From Nostoc sp. DedSLP01 (GTDB lineage: Bacteria; Cyanobacteriota; Cyanobacteriia; Cyanobacteriales; Nostocaceae), in the NCBI GenBank assembly GCA_034530875.2, contig JAVRCJ020000005.1, positions 300,662 through 364,661 on the forward strand: a DNA stretch of 64,000 nt. The letters are read 5' to 3'. The position numbers were made by a program, and so were the translations under genes. Under the pieces are notes generated by a model. That model did no database searches and had not been told where the DNA came from. It saw only the letters and a program-made list of their open reading frames with translations. Positions within the stretch are counted from its first letter, which is position 1; each line of letters begins with the position of its first letter. Of the stretch, positions 53,965 to 64,000 are shown in pieces.

Positions 53965-54020
53965 GATATAAACAAATGTGAAGTAGCCTTTAATAATTGT
54001 AGAGTAGGTGACGGGTGAGA

Positions 54021-54291
54021 GTGTGGGAGGTGTGGGAGGTGTGGGGGGTGTGGGAGGTGTGGGAGGTGTGGGGGGTGTGGGAGGTGTGGGGGGTGTGGGA
54101 GGTGTGGGAGGTGTGCCGGCGCCGCCCCGCCCTAAACCCTCTCCTGGCCGCCCCCCCCCCCCCCCCCCCCGCGGGGGGGGGGGGGGGGGGCGCGGGGGGG
54201 GGGGGGGGGGGGGGGGCGGGGGGGGGGGGGGGGGGGGGGGGGGCGGGGGGGGGGGGGGGGGTGGTGTGGGAGGTGTGGGGGGTGTGGGAGG
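54021..54291. repeat. G-rich 9-mer tandem repeat (GTGTGGGAG/GTGTGGGGG) with poly-G/poly-C core
   Basis: Directly visible; the core ~54115-54262 is homopolymeric and of doubtful quality. Confidence 0.75.
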
Positions 54292-54362
54292 AATAACCAA
54301 TGACCAATGACCAATGACTAATGACTAATGACTAATGACTAATGACTAATGACTAATGACTA
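54292..54362 (+). repeat. Heptamer STRR (AATGACC/AATGACT)n running into the aroE start codon
   Basis: About ten tandem 7-mers; the last supplies ATG ACT. Confidence 0.85.
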
Positions 54363-55276
54363 AATTAATTACAGGCAAAACTAAACTTTTAGGAGTTATC
54401 GGACATCCGGTGGAACATTCACTGTCGCCGGTGATGCATAATGCAGCGTTAGCGCAGCTCGTCGTTCGCGTAGCGTCTCGTAGAGAAGACATCGCTGATT
54501 TGGGATTAGATTATGTTTATCTGCCTTTTCCCATAGCACCAGAAAATTTGGAAATTGCGATCGCAGGTTTTGCAGCGTTTGATATTGTCGGTTTTAACGT
54601 CACAATTCCTCATAAACAAGCAATTATACCCTTACTCACAGAAATTACACCTATTGCTCAAACTATTGGAGCAGTGAATACTGTTAGCCGTAAAAATGGC
54701 AAATGGGTAGGTACAAACACGGATATTGAAGGATTTATCGCTCCTTTGCAGACAACATACAAACAAGATTGGAGTCAAAAGGTCGCGGTAATTTTAGGCA
54801 ATGGTGGTGCAGCTAGGGCAGTTGTTGCAGGTTGTCACCAACTCGGTTTTGCCAAAATTTATGTATTGGGACGCAATGTGCAGAAATTACAAGCATTTTG
54901 CGATAGTTGGAGTAATCCAGCTATCGAAGAGAATTTGCAAGTCGGTACATGGGATGAACTAGCAAAATTGATTCCCCAAGCAGATTTGTTAGTCAATACA
55001 ACCCCCATCGGGATGTATCCCAAAGTTGATGAATCGCCTTTGAGTGCAGAAGAAATAGGGCAATTGCCCCAAGGTGCGATCGCTTATGACTTAATATATA
55101 TTCCTAAACCAACACAATTTCTAAAGCTTGCACAAAAGCAAGGCGCAATTGCGATCGATGGATTAGAAATGCTAGTCCAACAAGGGGTAGCAGCATTAAA
55201 AATCTGGTTGCAGCAAGAAACTATACCTGTAGAAGTCATGCGCCAAGCATTGAGAAAGCATCTGAATTTGGAGTAA
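54356..55276 (+). CDS. aroE: Shikimate dehydrogenase, with a 14-aa in-frame insertion
   Basis: GHPVEHSLSPVMHN, NVTIPHK, GAVNT, NTD, DGLEMLVQQG. Confidence 0.95.
   Translation: MTKLITGKTKLLGVIGHPVEHSLSPVMHNAALAQLVVRVASRREDIADLGLDYVYLPFPIAPENLEIAIAGFAAFDIVGFNVTIPHKQAIIPLLTEITPIAQTIGAVNTVSRKNGKWVGTNTDIEGFIAPLQTTYKQDWSQKVAVILGNGGAARAVVAGCHQLGFAKIYVLGRNVQKLQAFCDSWSNPAIEENLQVGTWDELAKLIPQADLLVNTTPIGMYPKVDESPLSAEEIGQLPQGAIAYDLIYIPKPTQFLKLAQKQGAIAIDGLEMLVQQGVAALKIWLQQETIPVEVMRQALRKHLNLE
54449..54490. mobile_element. Nested 21+21-nt small dispersed repeats inserted in a HIP1 site
   Basis: GCG|TTAGCGCAGCTCGTCGT[TCGCGTAGCGTCTCGTAGAGA]AGAC|ATCGC; removing 42 nt restores GCGATCGC and ...HNAAIADLGLDY. Confidence 0.75.
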
Positions 55277-55829
55277 TTTTGACCGTCCAGTTCGCAGGAC
55301 GGCCGACACGCCCATCCTACAAAGATTTTGTCATGCGAACTGCAAAATTTTTCGTTTTTTGCGTAAAGTATGAAACTTGAAGTGAATAGTATTATATGAC
55401 GATGTTTACTATGCTTAAACGGGGACAACATTATAAGTCTCCCATCTATATTTACTTCTATGGAAAACTGCTCTGAATAAAAATCAGAGCAGTTTTATTT
55501 TGTTTAGGTAGCCAGATTTTCAACTGTGTCCAATAGACCTGCCTTGAAAATAGGGAATCTTTACTGGGGACTGGTGACTAGGAAAGAAATATTTTCATTC
55601 CTTCGTTGTGAATTGTATTCATGGAGTAAGAGTGCAAAACTCTTTTTGCGCTGTTGGGGCAAAGGGATGCATGTAAAAGCGAAAGGGTTTTTTCTTATCC
55701 CTTTCCCCTTTCACCCTTACCCTTTTCCCGAATAAGAGCAAGAAGTCTAATGGTGAATAATCTACTTGTTGTTAGCGAGATAATCGTAAATTTATGTTTT
55801 AAAGTAGAAAGTAGTTGGATTGAAAGTGT

Positions 55830-56231
55830 TTGTTACTACCAATGAAAGTTTTAGGGTTAGTCCTGCCAGTTTTGTTGCTGCTAGGTACGCCTACTATGGC
55901 AGTTGAGTTGAAAGGGCAAAATATTGATGGTCAAAAGCTGCCTGCCAAAGCTTACTATTATGCAACTGGTGGTGTATACAAAGTTCAGGTAAAGTTTCAT
56001 AAAAAACGAGCTACTATCTATTTTGACGATCGCAACCAGATAACTATAAATTTGAACCAGGAAGCGATCGCTGACTCAAAGAATATTGAAGGTTATGGAA
56101 TGCTAGGGCAATATCCTCTGGGAATATTTAGCGTTGGCTTGGTGTATGGCAATGATTGGCTAGGCAGCAGCGATAGTCAATTCCAACAGTCAAATCCGCT
56201 ATTTGGTTTGTGGAGAATCAGTTTAGAGTGA
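55830..56231 (+). CDS. Secreted hypothetical protein
   Basis: Signal peptide MKVLGLVLPVLLLLG...; contains HIP1 sites. Confidence 0.6.
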   Translation: MLLPMKVLGLVLPVLLLLGTPTMAVELKGQNIDGQKLPAKAYYYATGGVYKVQVKFHKKRATIYFDDRNQITINLNQEAIADSKNIEGYGMLGQYPLGIFSVGLVYGNDWLGSSDSQFQQSNPLFGLWRISLE

Positions 56232-56387
56232 AGACTGGCTTTGAAAGTTAAGATTGGCGATCGCAAAAACTGCAAACTAGACTTCTTGGTATTGTGGGGA
56301 AAGGGGAAGCGAAAAATTTAACCTTTTCCCACAACCAAATTCTGAATTCAAAATTTACAAAGCGAGTAGTATTGCCATTGAGCCTAA

Positions 56388-56660
56388 TTACTCTATAGGT
56401 TCAGCTGACTTCATCCGTTCTTCACCTACTTCAGCTCTTGCCTCTGCGATGATATCATCCCAAGTTTCGCCCAATTCGGCTAAGGCTTCTTTATTTTTTT
56501 CATAAAAAGCAATTCCACTTTTGACAAGTTTTTTAGCTATTGGCCTGCCAACGCCACCGATGACTGGTAAGAATACTGGTAAAAGAATTATCCCGACAAT
56601 ACCTGTAATTCCTAATCCTTCTGCTAAATCTCCAAGGTCGGGTAAAAGTTTAACTGACAT
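56388..56660 (-). CDS. DUF5132-like small membrane protein
   Basis: GRPIAKKLVKSGIAFYEK...ELGETWDDIIAEARAE. Confidence 0.75.
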   Translation of the reverse strand: MSVKLLPDLGDLAEGLGITGIVGIILLPVFLPVIGGVGRPIAKKLVKSGIAFYEKNKEALAELGETWDDIIAEARAEVGEERMKSAEPIE

Positions 56661-56908
56661 AGTAGCTTTTCCTCGCTGGTTTTAGTTAATGTCATTTTAA
56701 TTTGACTCTATTATTTAAGTTTGGTATGGAAACATTCCGCAATTCTCAAAGCTTGATAAAAGTTAAATAACCTTAATCACCTAGCTTGCTGCGACAGCTA
56801 CATTCACTACTGAGATAGATTTTTTAATTCAGAAGAATAGATATAACTAAACTAAAGCCAACCTTTGAGAATATCAATATATAAGTTTATAAATTTCAGT
56901 TCTATTTT

Positions 56909-57571
56909 TTGAAATTAAAAAATAATCTTATGACTTCTAGAAAACGGTCTAACTCTCCCAAAAGTGCAAGCCTTAATCTACATTTACCATCAACAAAAGT
57001 AGGTAAAAATCTAGCTCAAAAAACACTGGCATCTTCAAAAATATCATATAGTATAGTCCATGCAATTCCTGGGCGCATACGTTTTCGTATTCCTCTGCTA
57101 GCAAGAGATGCCGAGTATAGTAATCAAATTAAATCGGTGATGGAATCTGACAAAAGAGTTATAAATGTTCGTGTTAATCCCCAAGCTGCATCCATCATTA
57201 TCAATTACCGGGTAGGCGTCATTTCAGATAATCAAATGCGCGAACATCTAATCGGCCTAATTCAAACTGCTCAAGATGTGCTTGTGCCAAGAGAGATAAC
57301 GATAAAATCAATCGTGGAGACTATCTTTGATGCTTTAATCAATTTAATTGATAGTACGCGCAATCTCAACCAAGCACGTAATATTATTGTCTATCGCAAG
57401 TTTAGGACAAACGTTTGGGAACGAATACTTTCTACCTCAAGAAGTGTAATTAAGAGATTAAAATCTGCAACTATGTTTATTTTACCGAACAAGCGATGGC
57501 GATTGCGCGGCAATGCCAACATCAGCCAGCCTTTACAACTGCAAGCTGCTAGCGAAGCTGACGGTGTATAG
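56909..57571 (+). CDS. HMA2-like domain protein
   Basis: YSIVHAIPGRIRFRIP...VRVNPQAASIIINY. Confidence 0.75.
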   Translation: MKLKNNLMTSRKRSNSPKSASLNLHLPSTKVGKNLAQKTLASSKISYSIVHAIPGRIRFRIPLLARDAEYSNQIKSVMESDKRVINVRVNPQAASIIINYRVGVISDNQMREHLIGLIQTAQDVLVPREITIKSIVETIFDALINLIDSTRNLNQARNIIVYRKFRTNVWERILSTSRSVIKRLKSATMFILPNKRWRLRGNANISQPLQLQAASEADGV

Positions 57572-57632
57572 CTGCCAAATGTCGCTATTTTTCTAATAAA
57601 ATAAGTATCTTATTTCTCGGTTGCTACATGTC

Positions 57633-58964
57633 TTAAACAGTTACGAAATAGTTAGCACTAAGGCTGAGGTTGCTGGAGCCTTGAACGATCGCAATTAGTT
57701 CAAGCTTACTTTCATTCAAGAATAAGGCTGTACCTGTAGGTAAGCCAGTCGGTACTACTCCTAAGCTATAGCTAGATTTCAAACCAGATAATTGGAGTAT
57801 GTCTTCGTTAGTATTGAAATCGGTAATCAAGGCATAATCGCCTAAGCCAGAAGTTTTGCTATTACCATCGCTGTAGAAAACGCTTGCACTGAGGCCTAAG
57901 ACAAAGCGATCGCTACCAGCGTCTCCAGTCAAACGGTCAATTTGTCTAGCACCTTTTGTTGCTGTACCCGTCCCTGTGAGTACATCGTTACCATCATCTC
58001 CAAATAAGCGATCGCTCCCAGCACCACCGAAGATAGAATCATTACCACGTCCGCCGTAGACGAGATCCTTACCATTATCCCCAAATAGGGAATCATTACC
58101 ATCGCCACCAGTAATGTAGTCATTTCCGCCATTACCACGAATGATATCATCGGCTGCACCACCCGCTTGGAAGTCGTTCTTAGCAGTACCTGAAAGAGTC
58201 AGAGCAACAATAGTTTTATTGTCTTTAGTTGTGGTGTCATTCTGCCCGGTAAATTGACCATTGACTAGTGTATTCAAGTTGAAAAGAATACTGTTTGACT
58301 GAGTAAAACTATTGCCTTGGAGTAATTGTGTATAGAGGGTGTGAGCATAGCCGTGATTGCCAATAAAATCCGACTCACCAGGCTGTAACGGGTCTTTCCA
58401 GTTAACATATAAATCTAACGTAGCCAAGCGCGCATCATAGCCCAATATCTGACTTGTATGTAAAGCGACAACCCGAGTGGCATCAGTTGGATCTAGGCGA
58501 TCGCTAGCTGTTTTGTCTTCAAACTCAGGCCCGGCCGGATCTAGTCCGACTATTTGACCGATGGAATGTCTGGTAGATGCTTTATAGGCAGCACCAGCAA
58601 ATCCAGCAACGTGCGCTCCCAAACTATGACCTATCAGGCTGGTGTAAGTGGGATCTACGCCATTTTTTATTAAGTAGGTACCCAACCGATCGCCGACATT
58701 GCGCGTTTCACTAGCCGAAGTAGAATACCACAAGGAACTAGCTGCTTCTTCCCAATCTACTAAAACAATATTGGCATCGGACTGGCGCTGTCGAATGGTT
58801 TGGGCGATGTTTGCCATCCAGTCCACAGGTTTATAGTTATTATTTGCGTTGCCACCAGTGCTGAAATAACCATGAATAATTACATAAGTTGGTGCATCAG
58901 AATTAATCTGCCCCGAACGGTTTATAGAGCCGTTACCCCAAATATTAAAGCCGACTTGAACCAT
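57633..58964 (-). CDS. Pancreatic-lipase-like hydrolase fused to RTX Ca-binding repeats
   Basis: IIHG, VDW, GHSLGAH, GLDPAGP, then GGxGxD nonapeptide repeats. Confidence 0.85.
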   Translation of the reverse strand: MVQVGFNIWGNGSINRSGQINSDAPTYVIIHGYFSTGGNANNNYKPVDWMANIAQTIRQRQSDANIVLVDWEEAASSLWYSTSASETRNVGDRLGTYLIKNGVDPTYTSLIGHSLGAHVAGFAGAAYKASTRHSIGQIVGLDPAGPEFEDKTASDRLDPTDATRVVALHTSQILGYDARLATLDLYVNWKDPLQPGESDFIGNHGYAHTLYTQLLQGNSFTQSNSILFNLNTLVNGQFTGQNDTTTKDNKTIVALTLSGTAKNDFQAGGAADDIIRGNGGNDYITGGDGNDSLFGDNGKDLVYGGRGNDSIFGGAGSDRLFGDDGNDVLTGTGTATKGARQIDRLTGDAGSDRFVLGLSASVFYSDGNSKTSGLGDYALITDFNTNEDILQLSGLKSSYSLGVVPTGLPTGTALFLNESKLELIAIVQGSSNLSLSANYFVTV

Positions 58965-59441
58965 ACTATAAAAAATCCTATAGAAAACTTCTGTTTCTTA
59001 GTCTGAAAGTGATTGGGCAGGAAGAATTTGATTAATTTATTGCTTAGATGACTGCAATTAAATGAACCTCAAATAACAGATTATTTGCTGTTGTTGATTT
59101 TATATGTGAGAATCATTCCACATAATACCAAAAACTTTGCACGCACAGCCTAGTAAAAGTTATTTACATCTAAATCTATACGCGAATTCACCAAAGCATA
59201 AAAACTTAACTAATTGAAAAATATTTTTGAATATTAATAAAAATGAGATATTTGCTTAATCTTTTGATAAAAATAAATATAAAACTAATTAAAGGTAAAA
59301 AAACTTTATTTATCGCTATTGCAATCTAGCAGCAGAAGACAATTTCCTAAAGGGTTTCAGAGCTTTGTCTTTCACTCCTTAACACCCTATCAGCAACAGC
59401 TATGTAACGAGACTAGGTTTTATCCATCGATTAGCCATGAC

Positions 59442-59635
59442 TATGACTTAATACATTCTTAAACCAACACAATTTCTCAAGCTAGCAGAAAAACAAGGCG
59501 CAATTGCGATCAATGGCTTAGAAATGCTAGTGCAACAAGGGGTAGCAGTGCTAAAAATCTGGTTGCAACGGGAAACTAACTGTGCCTCTAGAAGTCATGC
59601 GCCAAGCTTTACAATATCATCTGGGTTTAGTTTGA
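59442..59635 (+). pseudogene. aroE': Degenerate duplicate of the aroE 3' end
   Basis: Aligns by eye to 55085-55276 (TATGACTTAAT...AAACCAACACAATTTCT...GAAATGCTAGT...GAAGTCATGCGCCAAGC) with a 2-nt deletion and a 4-nt insertion; ends ...EVMRQALQYHLGLV*. Confidence 0.9.
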
Positions 59636-59649
59636 TAGAGAAACAATTT

Positions 59650-59880
59650 GATCGGGCTATATAGCGGACACGGTAAACTCGATGGGTGACTGCTGACGTT
59701 TACGACATGAATTCTTGTCAACTAGCAGTTGATTGTGAGTGAGCATTCTTCATAGGGCACAGTCTAAAAACACCTAAATTTCACAACCTACGCTCTGGTG
59801 GTCGCTCATTTGGATGCATAGTGGATTGGGCAGAACAGCAGATGTTAGATTAGACTTACTAAAAGCTAACAAAAGCACTT
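59650..59880 (+). ncRNA. Putative structured RNA upstream of the RT (boundaries and strand inferred)
   Basis: GC-richer than its flanks, with serial hairpins 59673-59703, 59704-59719, 59718-59732 and 59737-59811. Confidence 0.4.
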
Positions 59881-59897
59881 TTAACGCAGACAATATA

Positions 59898-61616
59898 ATG
59901 AATAAAGATTTTTTGATTGAGCAGATAAGAAAGAGAGAAGTTTTTGAAAAAGCTTATGTATATGCTATATCGTACAGAATTAATTATGATTCTTACTGTA
60001 ATTTTATTGAGATAGATTACTATAGACAAAATAAAGAGAAGTTATTTAAAGAGATTGAATCATCCCTTGAAAATCCAAACTTATATGATGCAGAAACTGC
60101 TTTTTCTTACTATCTACCAAAATCAGATATGTTTTTCAGGAGAATGATATATACTCCATTTAAAGACTTGGTTATTAAATTTATTTTTGTATCTGTATTA
60201 GCTGAGCTATTAGATTTTACGTTTGTTCAAAATTGCTTTTCATATCGTCTTGAGAGAAATATTGAAAAAAATAAAAAATATAAGGGATATTTATATAAGT
60301 ATTACTATGAAAGTTTTCAAGAATTTATAGCTTGGCAATTAGCACAAGTTGAGAACAATAGTTGTATGTTGAAAACTGATATATCATCTTTTTATGATTC
60401 AATATCACATGAATACTTACTATTAGCTATTTCAAAACAGATCAATATAGGAAAAGATACACATTTTTTGACTCTTTTTGGTAAAACCTTGAAGTTCAAA
60501 ATTTCTTACTACTCAATTGTGGATGGTAAATTAAGTGAAACATATAATAGTCAAGGTATACCGATAGGAAATGAAGCAGAGGGATTTATAGCTAATATAT
60601 TTTTAAAGGAAGCTGATGAAGCATTATTTAACTTGGGTATAAACTTTGGAAGATATGTAGATGATTTCCGTATTTTTACAAACAGTAAAAGTGATGCGGT
60701 GAAAGCCTCAATAGTATTACAAGAATTTCTTTTAAAAATAGGGGTAAATTTGAATGCTTCAAAAACCAAGGTTATAGAAGCTGAAGAAGAAATAATTAAT
60801 TTTATTGAAGAGTCAAAGGAAAGTGGAGTTTCTGCAATGCCGTTTGAAGAAGAGGAATATAATGAAAGCAGCAAACAAGAAAAAAAATTAGATAAGACAG
60901 ACCTAATAAAAGAAATTGATTCAGAAAAAGTCAGTATGTATAAAGAACCTTATTATTCAAACCATCAAACATTATTTTTAAAAATAGAAGATATTAATAA
61001 TCAGGAAAAAGCAAAACAATTTGGTAAGTTTTTGAATGAAATCCCATTAGGTATAGAGATAGAAACTCAAATGTTTAGTGAGCATATAAAATGGCTTTAT
61101 CAATTGTCTAAAATATATCCAAAACATTGGAAATTATACTCTTGGTTATTTGTAAAGTTTTTATCTCAAAATTATAGCGATGATGTCCAAAGGATTAGCC
61201 TTAAATATCTTTTTGCTGTATTTGATGATGAGCTTATCGATACATTTATCAAGACTAGAATCATTCATCATTTAGTTAAACCACGAAAGGGAGCATTAAC
61301 CTATATAGAAAGAATATCAACCAGAAAAAATCTTAGGAAGAGAATTATTGAATATATAACTAAGTTAATGAAAATAAATTGTATGGCATTACAATTGAAT
61401 TGTATATATGCTTATTATCTGCTTTTCAAAGATCATCGAGATGTGGAAGATTTTGTATCTAAAAGTTTAAAACGCCCAATACCAGAACCAATCCAAAATG
61501 CTGTTTATCAGATTGGAACTTTATGTTTCCGAGGTTCTTCAAGGTTGGTCTCTTTTGAAGAAATTTTGGAAGAAAGTGAAATAGAATATGAATCTGAAAG
61601 TATTATTTTCCAGTAA
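59898..61616 (+). CDS. Reverse transcriptase, UG/Abi-like (defence-associated type), with C-terminal helical domain
   Basis: NCFSYR, LKTDISSFYDSISH, QGIPIGNEAEGFIANIFL, RYVDDFRIF, LNASKT; no retron VTG motif; ATG 59898 preferred over 59814. Confidence 0.88.
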   Translation: MNKDFLIEQIRKREVFEKAYVYAISYRINYDSYCNFIEIDYYRQNKEKLFKEIESSLENPNLYDAETAFSYYLPKSDMFFRRMIYTPFKDLVIKFIFVSVLAELLDFTFVQNCFSYRLERNIEKNKKYKGYLYKYYYESFQEFIAWQLAQVENNSCMLKTDISSFYDSISHEYLLLAISKQINIGKDTHFLTLFGKTLKFKISYYSIVDGKLSETYNSQGIPIGNEAEGFIANIFLKEADEALFNLGINFGRYVDDFRIFTNSKSDAVKASIVLQEFLLKIGVNLNASKTKVIEAEEEIINFIEESKESGVSAMPFEEEEYNESSKQEKKLDKTDLIKEIDSEKVSMYKEPYYSNHQTLFLKIEDINNQEKAKQFGKFLNEIPLGIEIETQMFSEHIKWLYQLSKIYPKHWKLYSWLFVKFLSQNYSDDVQRISLKYLFAVFDDELIDTFIKTRIIHHLVKPRKGALTYIERISTRKNLRKRIIEYITKLMKINCMALQLNCIYAYYLLFKDHRDVEDFVSKSLKRPIPEPIQNAVYQIGTLCFRGSSRLVSFEEILEESEIEYESESIIFQ

Positions 61617-61626
61617 AATAAATATG

Positions 61627-63195
61627 TTAAAAGTCAATTTCTGGATCGGGAGTTTCATAAATAATAAGAAAACTTTTTGCTCTTGTTGCTCCGATATATT
61701 TATTGGCAATATCCCACTTACTTGGGATTAATGTTTTTATCTTCTCAAAAAATAGGATTATAACATCACTTTCTAATCCCTTATACATACCTATATTTGA
61801 CCATTGAAGAGTATTTGGATCTTTATTAGAAAATGAATACTGCTTGAGATGAAAACGATTGATATACAAATAATTTGAAAGTATCGATTTAACTAGTGGA
61901 TACATATCAGTTAATATAACAATCTGAGTAGGAAGAACATTCTCTTTATCAACTAAATTTAGAACATCTTCTTCTAACATCCTAAATATCTCACTTTTAT
62001 CTTGATATAGTCGTTGTACAACATTCTTTCCTTCAATAGCTGAACTTTTTATTGGATGAGTACAGGATACAAATGGCTCTGCATATTTAAATATTTTGTC
62101 AGTATTTCGACAGTTTTTGTCTAAAACATTTGGGATTACCGCAAGTGCAAATTTATTTGCATTTTTTGAAATATTTTGATTGCTATCTTGGAAAATGTAG
62201 AATATTCCATCATCTGGAATCAACTTGCTTAATCCGTTAACTTCCTGATACTCAAAGTCTTGTCCTTCATCAACAATGATTGCCGTAAACTCAAATTTAA
62301 TCTTATAATTTTGTGCCTTTATTTCTTCATAACTATAAACCACACAGTACCCTGATTGGATTTCAATTTGCAATGATGCTGCAAGATATAGCGAAAGGTT
62401 ATTAGATTTACAAATTACTAGCGTTCTTATATTATGTTGAGACAACCTTCTAGCTTTTTCTATTGCTAATTGAGTCTTGCCTGAACCAGCACATCCCAAA
62501 ATTATGCATTTAGAATGATGATAAAGGTAATCTAAGATATTGAATTGTTGCTCTGTTAATTTAAGAATCTCTTCTTTTATCTCACCAATATCATTGGCAA
62601 TATATTTTTTAAAATTACTACTTGGAGATATAAGGTTAACAATTTTTTCTGTACGATTATTTCCAAGTCTTATAACTTTTCCGTTCGCATAGTAATTGAA
62701 AACAGAGGAAATCCAGCTATCAACATTTTTTATTTGAGGACGTAAGAGTAATATTTCTTGTGGTGCTTCCGAAGGAAGTCCATTTATAACTTCATCGACA
62801 TCAGGGAAAACTACACATTGTCCAATACAAAAATCTTGCACTGAAAATTCGCTATATTTAATAAGAAAATCTCGAAACTTATATCTAATCTGTCTAGCTT
62901 GTTCAAATGGAGATATTTTCATTCTAATTTGGTTTTGATACCAAGCCTTATCAACAGAATCATATCTGATCTCTCCTCCTTTAGCTTCTACTATAAGTAT
63001 TCCTTTGTCAGGATGAATAATTATGAAATCAGCTTCTCTATCTTGGATAACATATTTGATATACTGCCACTGCCACCATGCTCCATGAAAAACAATATAA
63101 TCATTACTAAGGTTTTTTGCAAAAATTTCAAATAGCTTCTTTTCAGCATTGCTCTTTGTTGTTGACGATAACTTTTCAGGAATCATTCTTGCCAT
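61627..63195 (-). CDS. NERD nuclease fused to superfamily-1 helicase/ATPase
   Basis: EADFIIIHPDKGILIVEAKGG; Walker A GCAGSGKT; IIVDEGQD; NCRNT; YKGLESD; YIGATRA. Confidence 0.88.
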   Translation of the reverse strand: MARMIPEKLSSTTKSNAEKKLFEIFAKNLSNDYIVFHGAWWQWQYIKYVIQDREADFIIIHPDKGILIVEAKGGEIRYDSVDKAWYQNQIRMKISPFEQARQIRYKFRDFLIKYSEFSVQDFCIGQCVVFPDVDEVINGLPSEAPQEILLLRPQIKNVDSWISSVFNYYANGKVIRLGNNRTEKIVNLISPSSNFKKYIANDIGEIKEEILKLTEQQFNILDYLYHHSKCIILGCAGSGKTQLAIEKARRLSQHNIRTLVICKSNNLSLYLAASLQIEIQSGYCVVYSYEEIKAQNYKIKFEFTAIIVDEGQDFEYQEVNGLSKLIPDDGIFYIFQDSNQNISKNANKFALAVIPNVLDKNCRNTDKIFKYAEPFVSCTHPIKSSAIEGKNVVQRLYQDKSEIFRMLEEDVLNLVDKENVLPTQIVILTDMYPLVKSILSNYLYINRFHLKQYSFSNKDPNTLQWSNIGMYKGLESDVIILFFEKIKTLIPSKWDIANKYIGATRAKSFLIIYETPDPEIDF

Positions 63196-63455
63196 AATTA
63201 TTCACTTATCAGTTATGATAAATAGCTACTTTGCAATAGTACTCTGTATATTATCATTTAGTCATTAATGATGTTACATTACGACATCAATCTAATGAAA
63301 TACTAATTAGGCTTTATCATAGTAAAGCAATCGCAGCAACAATGAAGTAAAAATATAAAGCTGTGTACCAATGAACTGAGCTATTGCCGAACAAAATCGG
63401 TAAAACTGGTGCGATCAGAGTCTGTTCTGAACGATGTAGTGGTCTTACATAGTCT

Positions 63456-64000
63456 ATGTTTTCCAAACCAAAAGTACTTTTATCATTACTTGCATTATTA
63501 CTAAGTTTGACAAGCCTATTTCTTACCTCTTGGATTATACTTCCGGCTCCAAATATGTTTTTACTCACATTAGCAGTGGGAGCGCCAGAAGTTAGTCCTT
63601 GGTTATTTTTATTCAATCTGCTCTGTTTATTACTTTCTTTTTTCTGCATTAGTCGCGGCCAAATAAGGCGTTTAGCTTGCATTTTCAGCTTAATCGGATT
63701 GCTAATTTGTGGATGGGTACTAGTGAATATTTCACCCACTCAGATGCAGATGACCCAAGCGATGAAACAAGCATTGGGAGCAGATTATTTAGAAAAAATC
63801 CCAGTTCGATTAAGCGCCAACATGCAAACTCATCCCTTTAACTTAGTTGATTCCTTCCGGGGGATTGCATTAGGTAAAACGCGCCATCAAAAAGATATTA
63901 TCTTTGCTACTCCTGGGGGAGTGCCTTTAAAAATGGAAGTTTACCAACCGCCGGAGGTGGGAAAATATCCAGCAGTAATAGTAATTTATGGTGGAGCTTG
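63456..64000 (+). CDS. Membrane-anchored alpha/beta hydrolase (esterase), 3'-truncated by window edge; not in ORF track
   Basis: Manual translation MFSKPKVLLSLL...LAVGAPEVSPWL...MEVYQPPEVGKYPAVIVIYGGA; open to the window end. Confidence 0.8.
   Translation, partial: MFSKPKVLLSLLALLLSLTSLFLTSWIILPAPNMFLLTLAVGAPEVSPWLFLFNLLCLLLSFFCISRGQIRRLACIFSLIGLLICGWVLVNISPTQMQMTQAMKQALGADYLEKIPVRLSANMQTHPFNLVDSFRGIALGKTRHQKDIIFATPGGVPLKMEVYQPPEVGKYPAVIVIYGGA

Follow-up and report, generated by a model that had tools for sequence, protein, structure and literature searches.

Class 1 of the UG/Abi reverse transcriptases (RTs) contains the closest described relatives of the system considered here. Template-free production of single-stranded DNA (ssDNA) has been described for class 1 enzymes, whose channels accommodate ssDNA only (bioRxiv 10.64898/2026.02.16.706125). 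DRT4 and DRT6, two defence-associated reverse transcriptase (DRT) systems, and likewise AbiK and Abi-P2 are template-free and protein-primed; ExoI restrains DRT4 and DRT6, a protein of the phage that binds ssDNA sets them off, and the priming site varies among relatives (Y44, Y61, Y125 in DRT4, Y298/303; PMC12783706). The priming residue is S402 in DRT1 (PMC13275509), the C-terminal Y666 of 667 residues in DRT3b, where Y666F is dead (bioRxiv 10.64898/2026.05.04.722794), and Y496/Y498 at the C-terminus in DRT9 (bioRxiv 10.1101/2025.03.24.645077). Immunity by DRT8 needs both the RT and the nuclease active sites (Mestre et al. 2022, PMC9226505), and the same study defined UG34 as a class 1 UG/Abi group of which 7 of 17 members stood beside a NERD-helicase of cluster 485. 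We analysed a UG34 locus in a stretch of 64,000 nucleotides from Nostoc sp. DedSLP01 (positions 300,662 to 364,661, forward strand, of contig JAVRCJ020000005.1 in assembly GCA_034530875.2; hereafter the window, numbered from its first letter), in which an RT gene converges on a gene for a NERD nuclease-superfamily 1 (SF1) helicase. The two enzymes are intact and co-inherited, with strict pairing and co-divergence, and no non-coding RNA (ncRNA) accompanies them. The system's function is probably phage defence, and we tentatively favour, as a reading that may well prove wrong, a two-gene, horizontally spread UG34 anti-phage module in which ssDNA made by the RT would gate the nuclease-helicase as effector.

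Identity of the RT

The RT gene (59898..61616, forward strand) encodes 572 amino acids (aa), and its product matched the PADLOC profile RT_UG34 over residues 1-559 with 677.7 bits (E 2.9e-204). The runner-up, UG21, scored 114 bits (E 1.6e-33), the Drt8 model was among the next-best (E 7.5e-31), and the UG34 profile was the top match for all seven distant RT relatives tested. A first-pass annotation made from the letters alone had called an RT of about 572 aa with the motifs TDISSFYDSI (residue 160), GIPIG (residue 220) and YVDD (residue 253; 60654..60665, forward strand), and the open reading frame bore this out; K75, R81, D161, D255 and D256 were invariant across 49 family members. The annotation had also taken the system to be undescribed and its subtype to be unassignable, which proved incorrect, since the PADLOC check that it proposed placed the RT cleanly in UG34 and the pairing of UG34 with the cluster-485 NERD-helicase is already catalogued (Mestre 2022/PADLOC v2). 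An in-frame ATG is present upstream at 59814; a longer RT beginning there was rejected because the homologues all begin at the position equal to 59898.

Searches for other classes of RT were negative. The RT contained no VTG and scored 43 bits against the retron St85 model (cut-off 235), with no associated RNA, while the group II intron model TIGR04416 gave 94 bits against a cut-off of 300, over model positions 24-266 of 353, with no intron match in Rfam. Against the curated Drt3a, Drt4, Drt5 and AbiA models the RT remained far under the cut-off (53 against 450 for NCBIfam Drt4). No pair of template and variable repeats (TR/VR) of the kind belonging to diversity-generating retroelements was present in 54000-64000, and no cas1 lay near the RT, the sole cas1 of the genome being on another contig. 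Motif, profile and repeat searches upheld the absences listed at first pass (VTG, maturase, cas1, TR/VR). The first-pass view was also right that the RT is of UG/Abi type, came in by horizontal transfer, is helical towards its C-terminus and is functionally tied to the convergent NERD-helicase, and that it is not a retron, group II intron, diversity-generating or CRISPR RT. Judged by profile and sequence, the RT is a UG34 enzyme of class 1 UG/Abi, and the locus is an intact copy, gained horizontally, of a system already catalogued.

An AlphaFold2 model of the RT (pLDDT 86, pTM 0.87) showed an RT domain (residues 1-310), a disordered acidic linker (residues 315-348), an alphaRep (HEAT-like helical repeat) domain (residues ~369-545; 61002..61532, forward strand; helices with pLDDT mostly >85) and a loose acidic C-terminal tail (residues 546-572; 61533..61613, forward strand) that ends IIFQ, with Phe571 in place of the terminal Tyr of most stand-alone UG34 enzymes. 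The first-pass description of the region after the motifs, an acidic linker followed by an all-helical domain, was correct in its order and too short in its length, as 316 aa rather than about 280 lie past YVDD. In structure comparison the whole-length model aligned over both domains to class 1 enzymes only, five structures in all: DRT4 (9vdo; Z 19.6, rmsd 5.0, 434 aligned), DRT6 (Z 17.9, rmsd 4.0, 421 aligned), AbiK (Z 16.2, rmsd 4.8, 429 aligned), Abi-P2 (Z 16.0, rmsd 4.3, 394 aligned) and AbiA.

The composition of the block 59640-63250 was extreme. Its GC content of 0.297 was below that of all 2322 same-size tiles of the genome (genome GC 40.9%), and it lacked the HIP1 octamer, as did 84 of the 2322 tiles (3.6%); both the AT-richness and the missing HIP1 had been noticed at first pass.

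The NERD-helicase partner

The partner gene (61627..63195, reverse strand) encodes 522 aa, and the protein matched PADLOC RTasNERD-Hel over residues 1-522 (834 bits, E 1.2e-251), with the Pfam NERD domain at residues 15-131. Its motifs are intact (nuclease E54/D56/E70/K72, Walker A GCAGSGKT, Walker B DE309-310, helicase motifs III-VI), and the nuclease and helicase motifs did not vary among 21 RT-linked copies, even where identity fell to 28%. The closest solved helicase relatives by sequence were HelD and SLFN11/5, and the best fold matches of a model of low confidence (pTM 0.40) were SLFN11/14; SLFN11 is an ssDNA-sensing nuclease-helicase. The convergent NERD-SF1 helicase called at first pass is separated from the RT by exactly 10 bp between the stop codons (61617..61626), where a terminator would not fit, and antisense coupling of the two genes may follow from this 10-bp junction. 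A terminator-like hairpin inside the helicase gene (61711-61728) was rejected, one having been found against 1.5 expected by chance and the hairpin not being retained in relatives.

Two side observations concern the helicase. Its C-terminus (window 61630-61650) carries a conserved acidic tip, PDPEIDF, or IADIF in deep members, which may resemble the C-terminal tip of SSB. Five NERD-helicases (L155, L156, L157, L160, L161) had no RT within 1.5 kb although they are as near to the RT-linked family as its own deep members (up to E 1e-110).

Two subtypes, strict pairing and the C-terminal tail

The UG34 scans yielded 19 genome loci and 79 metagenome loci, plus further loci. The RT tree was built from 77 rows spanning most of the profile, 29 of them with the helicase, 30 with at least 1 kb of downstream DNA free of it and 18 ending too early, and all 29 helicase-bearing rows fell, together with two contig-cut rows, on one side of a branch with an SH-aLRT of 100; a second tree, from a reduced set of 12 and 20 rows, gave the same single split. 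These were quick trees with SH-aLRT support only, a long-branch warning and an uncertain root, and what they show is that UG34 comprises two subtypes, stand-alone and helicase-linked, and not in which order these arose.

The helicase lay tail-to-tail with the RT in all 37 helicase-type loci with downstream DNA, some of which are near-copies, and six more loci were cut by contig ends. The gap between the two genes was 10 bp in most cyanobacterial loci and -4 to 41 bp overall, even at 28-36% identity. Pairwise identities of RT and helicase co-varied closely (Spearman 0.95 over 190 pairs and 0.85 in the main clade, kin not being independent). About half of the family functions without a helicase partner. 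As for fused forms, the strong matches among representatives at 50% identity were all 627 aa or shorter. One subgroup of stand-alone UG34 (L051, L065, L067, L072, L089) adjoins a dGTPase-family gene, mostly tail-to-tail; this neighbour is possibly a second partner affecting deoxynucleotide (dNTP) pools, or possibly a housekeeping insertion site.

The subtypes also differ at the C-terminus. A Tyr in the last three residues, after an acidic stretch, was found in 31 of 44 complete stand-alone RTs versus 6 of 30 helicase-linked ones, counts in which kin are not independent, and in 19 of 45 representatives at 50% identity with both types pooled. The helicase-linked RTs keep the invariant catalytic residues, and the family's invariant internal tyrosines (22, 166, 173, 205, 469, 504) and serines in the tail also remain. 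Stand-alone tails that lack the Tyr often end in Thr-Ser or Ser (PEPTS, PEITS and EPFS; L055, L075, L077, L085, L091, L105), which still offer a hydroxyl. As a lead, the terminal Tyr may prime stand-alone UG34, and the helicase-linked subtype may have lost or moved it.

The uneven occurrence of this Tyr beside invariant catalytic residues bears on a further explanation, in which the NERD nuclease-helicase would cut phage DNA and the RT would extend the resulting 3'-OH ends, and the untemplated tails would block repair, replication or packaging. The helicase-linked subtype would then have dropped Tyr priming in favour of partner-cut DNA ends, with the two genes balanced by antisense transcription. 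DRT3b and DRT9 are primed by a C-terminal Tyr where the window RT has Phe, which speaks for such a mechanism, and if true it would be a DRT mode of action not met in the literature examined. We nevertheless think it improbable, both as a mechanism and as the account of how the helicase-linked subtype is primed: terminal-Tyr priming in UG34 is itself hypothetical, with a Tyr in just those 19 of 45 representatives, priming sites move freely among relatives, the internal tyrosines and tail serines remain, and the channels of class 1 enzymes admit ssDNA only.

The upstream region is a gene remnant

The RT is preceded by some 260 nt of non-coding DNA, which seven genomes share at the site with 87% identity, and both facts could be read as signs of a structured upstream ncRNA that serves the RT as template or scaffold in the manner of DRT2 and DRT9. 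The first-pass annotation had gone this way, describing a hairpin-rich leader and a possible new RT-ncRNA combination, and neither description survived analysis. The leader (59640-59897) has a host-like GC content of 0.415, and its folding energy of -53.3 kcal/mol is weaker than the mean of its shuffles, -56.0 (z +0.66), 149 of 200 of which did as well; Rfam gave it no match, and two chance-level matches elsewhere in 55000-64000. Its greater part (59647..59827, forward strand) is a decayed piece of the gene for a cation P-type ATPase, from the C-terminal membrane region (Pfam Cation_ATPase_C), interrupted by stops and frameshifts. It aligned in the sense orientation with DNA coding for the C-terminal part of a 900-aa ATPase, and its local DNA score was 125, whereas 200 shuffles reached 68 at most. 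Searching with the ATPase protein by tblastn matched six of the seven leaders through stops and frameshifts (best E 7e-15), the window copy being detectable at the DNA level only.

By DNA search the full leader occurred in 7 of 127 genomes of the genus, the window's genome included, each time before the RT at the aroE site, and the mean column identity across the seven was 87%. No covariation was detected in the seven-sequence alignment (term +0.45; covariation score reached by 114 of 500 shuffles), and the divergence of 0.16 per site, against 0.19 at fourfold-degenerate sites and 0.037 at second codon positions of the RT, amounts to almost neutral drift. A covariance model of the leader was run over 76 loci (73 UG34, two ATPase, one emptied aroE site); its best matches were the two ATPase genes, then the emptied aroE site and then one UG34 locus (last 87 nt, E 0.02), and it found nothing in 72 of the 73 other UG34 loci. 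The upstream DNA of other helicase-linked loci was unrelated and formed at least 12 sequence groups, and in 19 of the 65 loci with a callable gene (76 examined), two helicase-linked ones among them, the upstream gene ended less than 100 bp from the RT start. Of the two features that the first pass proposed to look for in homologues, an upstream RNA and the helicase, the helicase was kept (37/37 helicase-type loci), and the leader was confined to the aroE site in seven genomes. Because of the ATPase homology, the poor folding, the near-neutral drift, the lack of covariation and the single insertion site, we conclude that the leader is what is left of a P-type ATPase pseudogene, carried as passenger DNA by one insertion event, and not an ncRNA. 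For this leader the RNA reading is refuted, and an upstream RNA as template or scaffold has next to no chance of explaining the system.

Among 20 upstream regions tested, four folded well alone (L032, z -4.3; L039, -3.5; L002, -3.0; L005, -2.9), and their nearest kin folded poorly (L033, +0.1; L049, -0.7; L003, +1.4). An ncRNA upstream of the helicase was likewise considered and rejected, the DNA there falling into three unrelated sequence groups linked to the insertion site. At one locus (L017:5410-6000) the non-coding leader is absent, and a 197-aa open frame with no Pfam match reads in frame into the RT.

Distribution, context and loss

Of 127 genomes of the genus, 9 had the module, three of these copies being deleted; full-length UG34 was present in 5 of 401 genomes of the phylum sample, and it was found at many insertion sites. 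Plasmid and phage collections gave no module match at E 1e-25 and 1e-15, and IMG/VR gave just four weak RT matches, all of other groups. For genomic context we scanned 36 stand-alone and 16 helicase-linked loci, with near-duplicates dropped by hand, taking the nearest gene of at least 150 aa on each side (82 proteins) and counting PADLOC matches with E no higher than 1e-20; the resulting counts are raw ones. A PADLOC-type neighbour was present at 17 of the 36 stand-alone loci, or 13 when dGTPase is excluded, and these neighbours included type I restriction-modification, BREX PglX, DarG of DarTG, Tiamat and PDC candidates. This larger set of loci lends stand-alone UG34 some defence-context support, which the 2022 study, with its 17 members, had left inconclusive.

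Seven broken loci were found, all through the RT. Five had been broken by a single deletion over the junction that truncates both genes (L002, L004, L019, L038, L149), these deletions being independent, 0.45-2.5 kb long and in some cases joined at short microhomology, and two had been broken by a stop in the RT, with the helicase partly or not seen. The chance of spanning the junction was 0.59, 0.16 and 0.55 for the three smaller deletions, and the two large ones necessarily span it.

The pattern of loss, with both gene ends deleted in five of the seven loci, the RT stopped in two and the helicase alone inactivated in none, would also suit an arrangement in which the RT by itself is a toxic defence unit that makes ssDNA constantly and the helicase-nuclease is its private silencer, trimming the product in place of ExoI or RecBCD. 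Phage proteins that block or titrate the helicase-nuclease would then cause DNA to pile up and the cell to die, and the tail-to-tail antisense arrangement could tune the ratio of the two proteins. Consistent with this, ExoI or RecBCD restrains DRT3, DRT4, DRT6, DRT9 and DRT10, the window's genome (99.8% complete) contained no ExoI-family match and no RecB above the cut-off, and about half of the UG34 family does without the partner. On the other hand, geometry makes junction-spanning deletions likely by chance, the broken loci were found through the RT, and the partner nuclease of DRT8 works for immunity and not against it. We regard a silencer role as rather unlikely. To our knowledge, no co-encoded silencer is known for any DRT.

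Proposed mechanism and points against it

Our preferred reading remains the RT-gated effector module. That the RT makes ssDNA without a template we infer with fair confidence, and that the helicase partner acts as effector with less. By extension from class 1 relatives, the RT would oligomerise via its alphaRep domain, as a homotrimer or homohexamer, and synthesise template-free ssDNA primed by a hydroxyl residue of its own; the terminal Tyr being absent, the candidates are an internal Tyr such as the invariant Y205, or Ser/Tyr564 of the tail. More tentatively, host nucleases might keep this ssDNA short until higher dNTP levels, or a protein of the phage that binds ssDNA or inhibits nucleases, allowed it to accumulate. 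The helicase domain of the partner would load on the accumulated ssDNA and activate the NERD nuclease, which would destroy phage DNA, host DNA or both, and protection would require both active sites, as in DRT8. We favour an effector because DRT8, the nearest tested analogue, needs its PD-(D/E)XK nuclease for immunity and because the partner is laid out like a nuclease-helicase that senses ssDNA. A defence role fits the patchy spread, the many insertion sites, the extreme AT bias and the repeated loss.

Several points weigh against this mechanism. Mestre et al. 2022 called the defence prediction for UG34 inconclusive and did not assay the system (PMC9226505); the literature searched, which lay largely outside subscription papers, contained no experiment on any UG34 and no later UG34 work. 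The priming residue is a candidate only, the likely terminal Tyr being missing from the helicase-linked subtype. Related NERD-helicases occur without any RT, so that an RT product is perhaps not needed for their activity. None of the seven broken loci had lost the helicase alone, an outcome that the effector model would allow. Taken by itself, the RT domain gave a better fit to the RTs of group II introns, which depend on a template (Z 24.1, rmsd 2.5, 268 aligned). Finally, the helicase-linked loci do not seem to lie in defence islands: just 2 of 16 had a PADLOC match, both to generic Ser/Thr kinases, and the loci sit among housekeeping genes such as aroE and clpP.

The last two points could be turned in favour of a DNA end-processing or repair module, in which the helicase-nuclease would resect ends and the RT fill or join them. 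The G2L4 RT acts in break repair, and the window's RT domain resembles group II-like RTs including that enzyme (Z 22.6, rmsd 3.0, 278 aligned), while the neighbours of the helicase-linked loci are housekeeping rather than defence genes. Repair is hard to reconcile with a module so rare and so often lost (9/127 in the genus, three deleted), with an alphaRep domain typical of defence RTs, or with a sister subtype that lies near restriction-modification, BREX, DarTG and Tiamat genes, and we hold a repair function to be a poor prospect.

The insertion site and flanking DNA

Between the ATPase remnant and the RT lies a short region (59828..59897, forward strand) that presumably holds the promoter and 5' untranslated region; its last ~40 nt are common to one locus at another site, and no consensus promoter was called in it. 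On the other side, the divergent intergenic region from the helicase start to the host esterase gene (63196..63455) forms the right border of the insert, and its sequence differs between insertion sites.

The host insertion site is marked by an additional, frameshifted copy of the aroE 3' end (59442..59635, forward strand; aroE encodes shikimate dehydrogenase), which is 84% identical to 55085-55264 and lies outside the RT-helicase system. In relatives at the aroE site the intact aroE stops there, 258-272 bp ahead of the RT. In the window a 4.2-kb block (55277-59441), with DUF5132, an HMA_2 protein and a lipase with RTX calcium repeats, stands between the intact aroE and the frameshifted 3' copy. 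Because this copy ends as the relatives' aroE does, the block was probably inserted inside aroE, supplying a new 3' end and parting the RT module from the gene. Across the genus (L143-L148) the interval between aroE and the esterase gene is variable, being empty, filled with other cargo or occupied by the UG34 module; L143 retains just 50 nt of the leader, which suggests that the module was lost there. Between a hydrolase gene and aroE, window 54000-54355 contains tandem 9-mer and 7-mer repeats and long poly-C/poly-G runs, and these runs look like an assembly artefact.

Comparison with known systems

The locus does not represent a novel type of system. It has the same RT group and the same partner as the catalogued pair of UG34 and cluster 485 NERD-helicase (PADLOC RT_UG34, PDLC03773; RTasNERD-Hel, PDLC03813), both at full length, and nothing sets it apart from that pair; its value is that of a clean, intact test case of an uncharacterised DRT group. 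In the main text of Mestre 2022 (PMC9226505) the word 'convergent' has 0 occurrences, and the available passages are silent on the tail-to-tail layout, the subtype split and the terminal Tyr, although the tail-to-tail or terminal-Tyr observations may already stand in supplements or tables of published work.

The partner is like SLFN11 and the HelD-like SF1 helicases in having an N-terminal nuclease followed by a compact SF1 helicase, and differs in that its nuclease is a NERD PD-(D/E)XK domain and not a Schlafen RNase, with 12-15% identity and a comparison made on a low-confidence model. AbiK, AbiA and Abi-P2 share the bilobed RT-alphaRep architecture (Z 16-17, about 390-440 aligned) but are only 11-18% identical to the window RT and have no helicase partner. 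Likewise, DRT4 (UG15) and DRT6 (UG12) match it over the whole length of RT and alphaRep, yet they are single-gene systems of 14% identity, with Tyr125 priming and dependence on host ExoI. Stand-alone UG34 may share priming from an extreme C-terminal Tyr with DRT3b (UG8) and DRT9 (UG28), although an ncRNA is part of both of those systems, DRT3 includes a second RT, and the window RT carries Phe in the terminal position. DRT8 (UG7 with a PD-(D/E)XK nuclease) likewise has a class 1 RT and, in some variants but not in others, a nuclease partner that belongs to NERD's superfamily, whereas its partner has no helicase and its RT belongs to another group (E 7.5e-31 against 3e-204). The class 1 RTs studied so far lean on host nucleases or act alone, while UG34 occurs naturally in two subtypes that differ in the presence of the nuclease-helicase and of the terminal Tyr. 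This contrast makes the role of the partner and the site of priming amenable to direct testing, and comparing the two subtypes would reveal the coupling between untemplated DNA and an effector or silencer.

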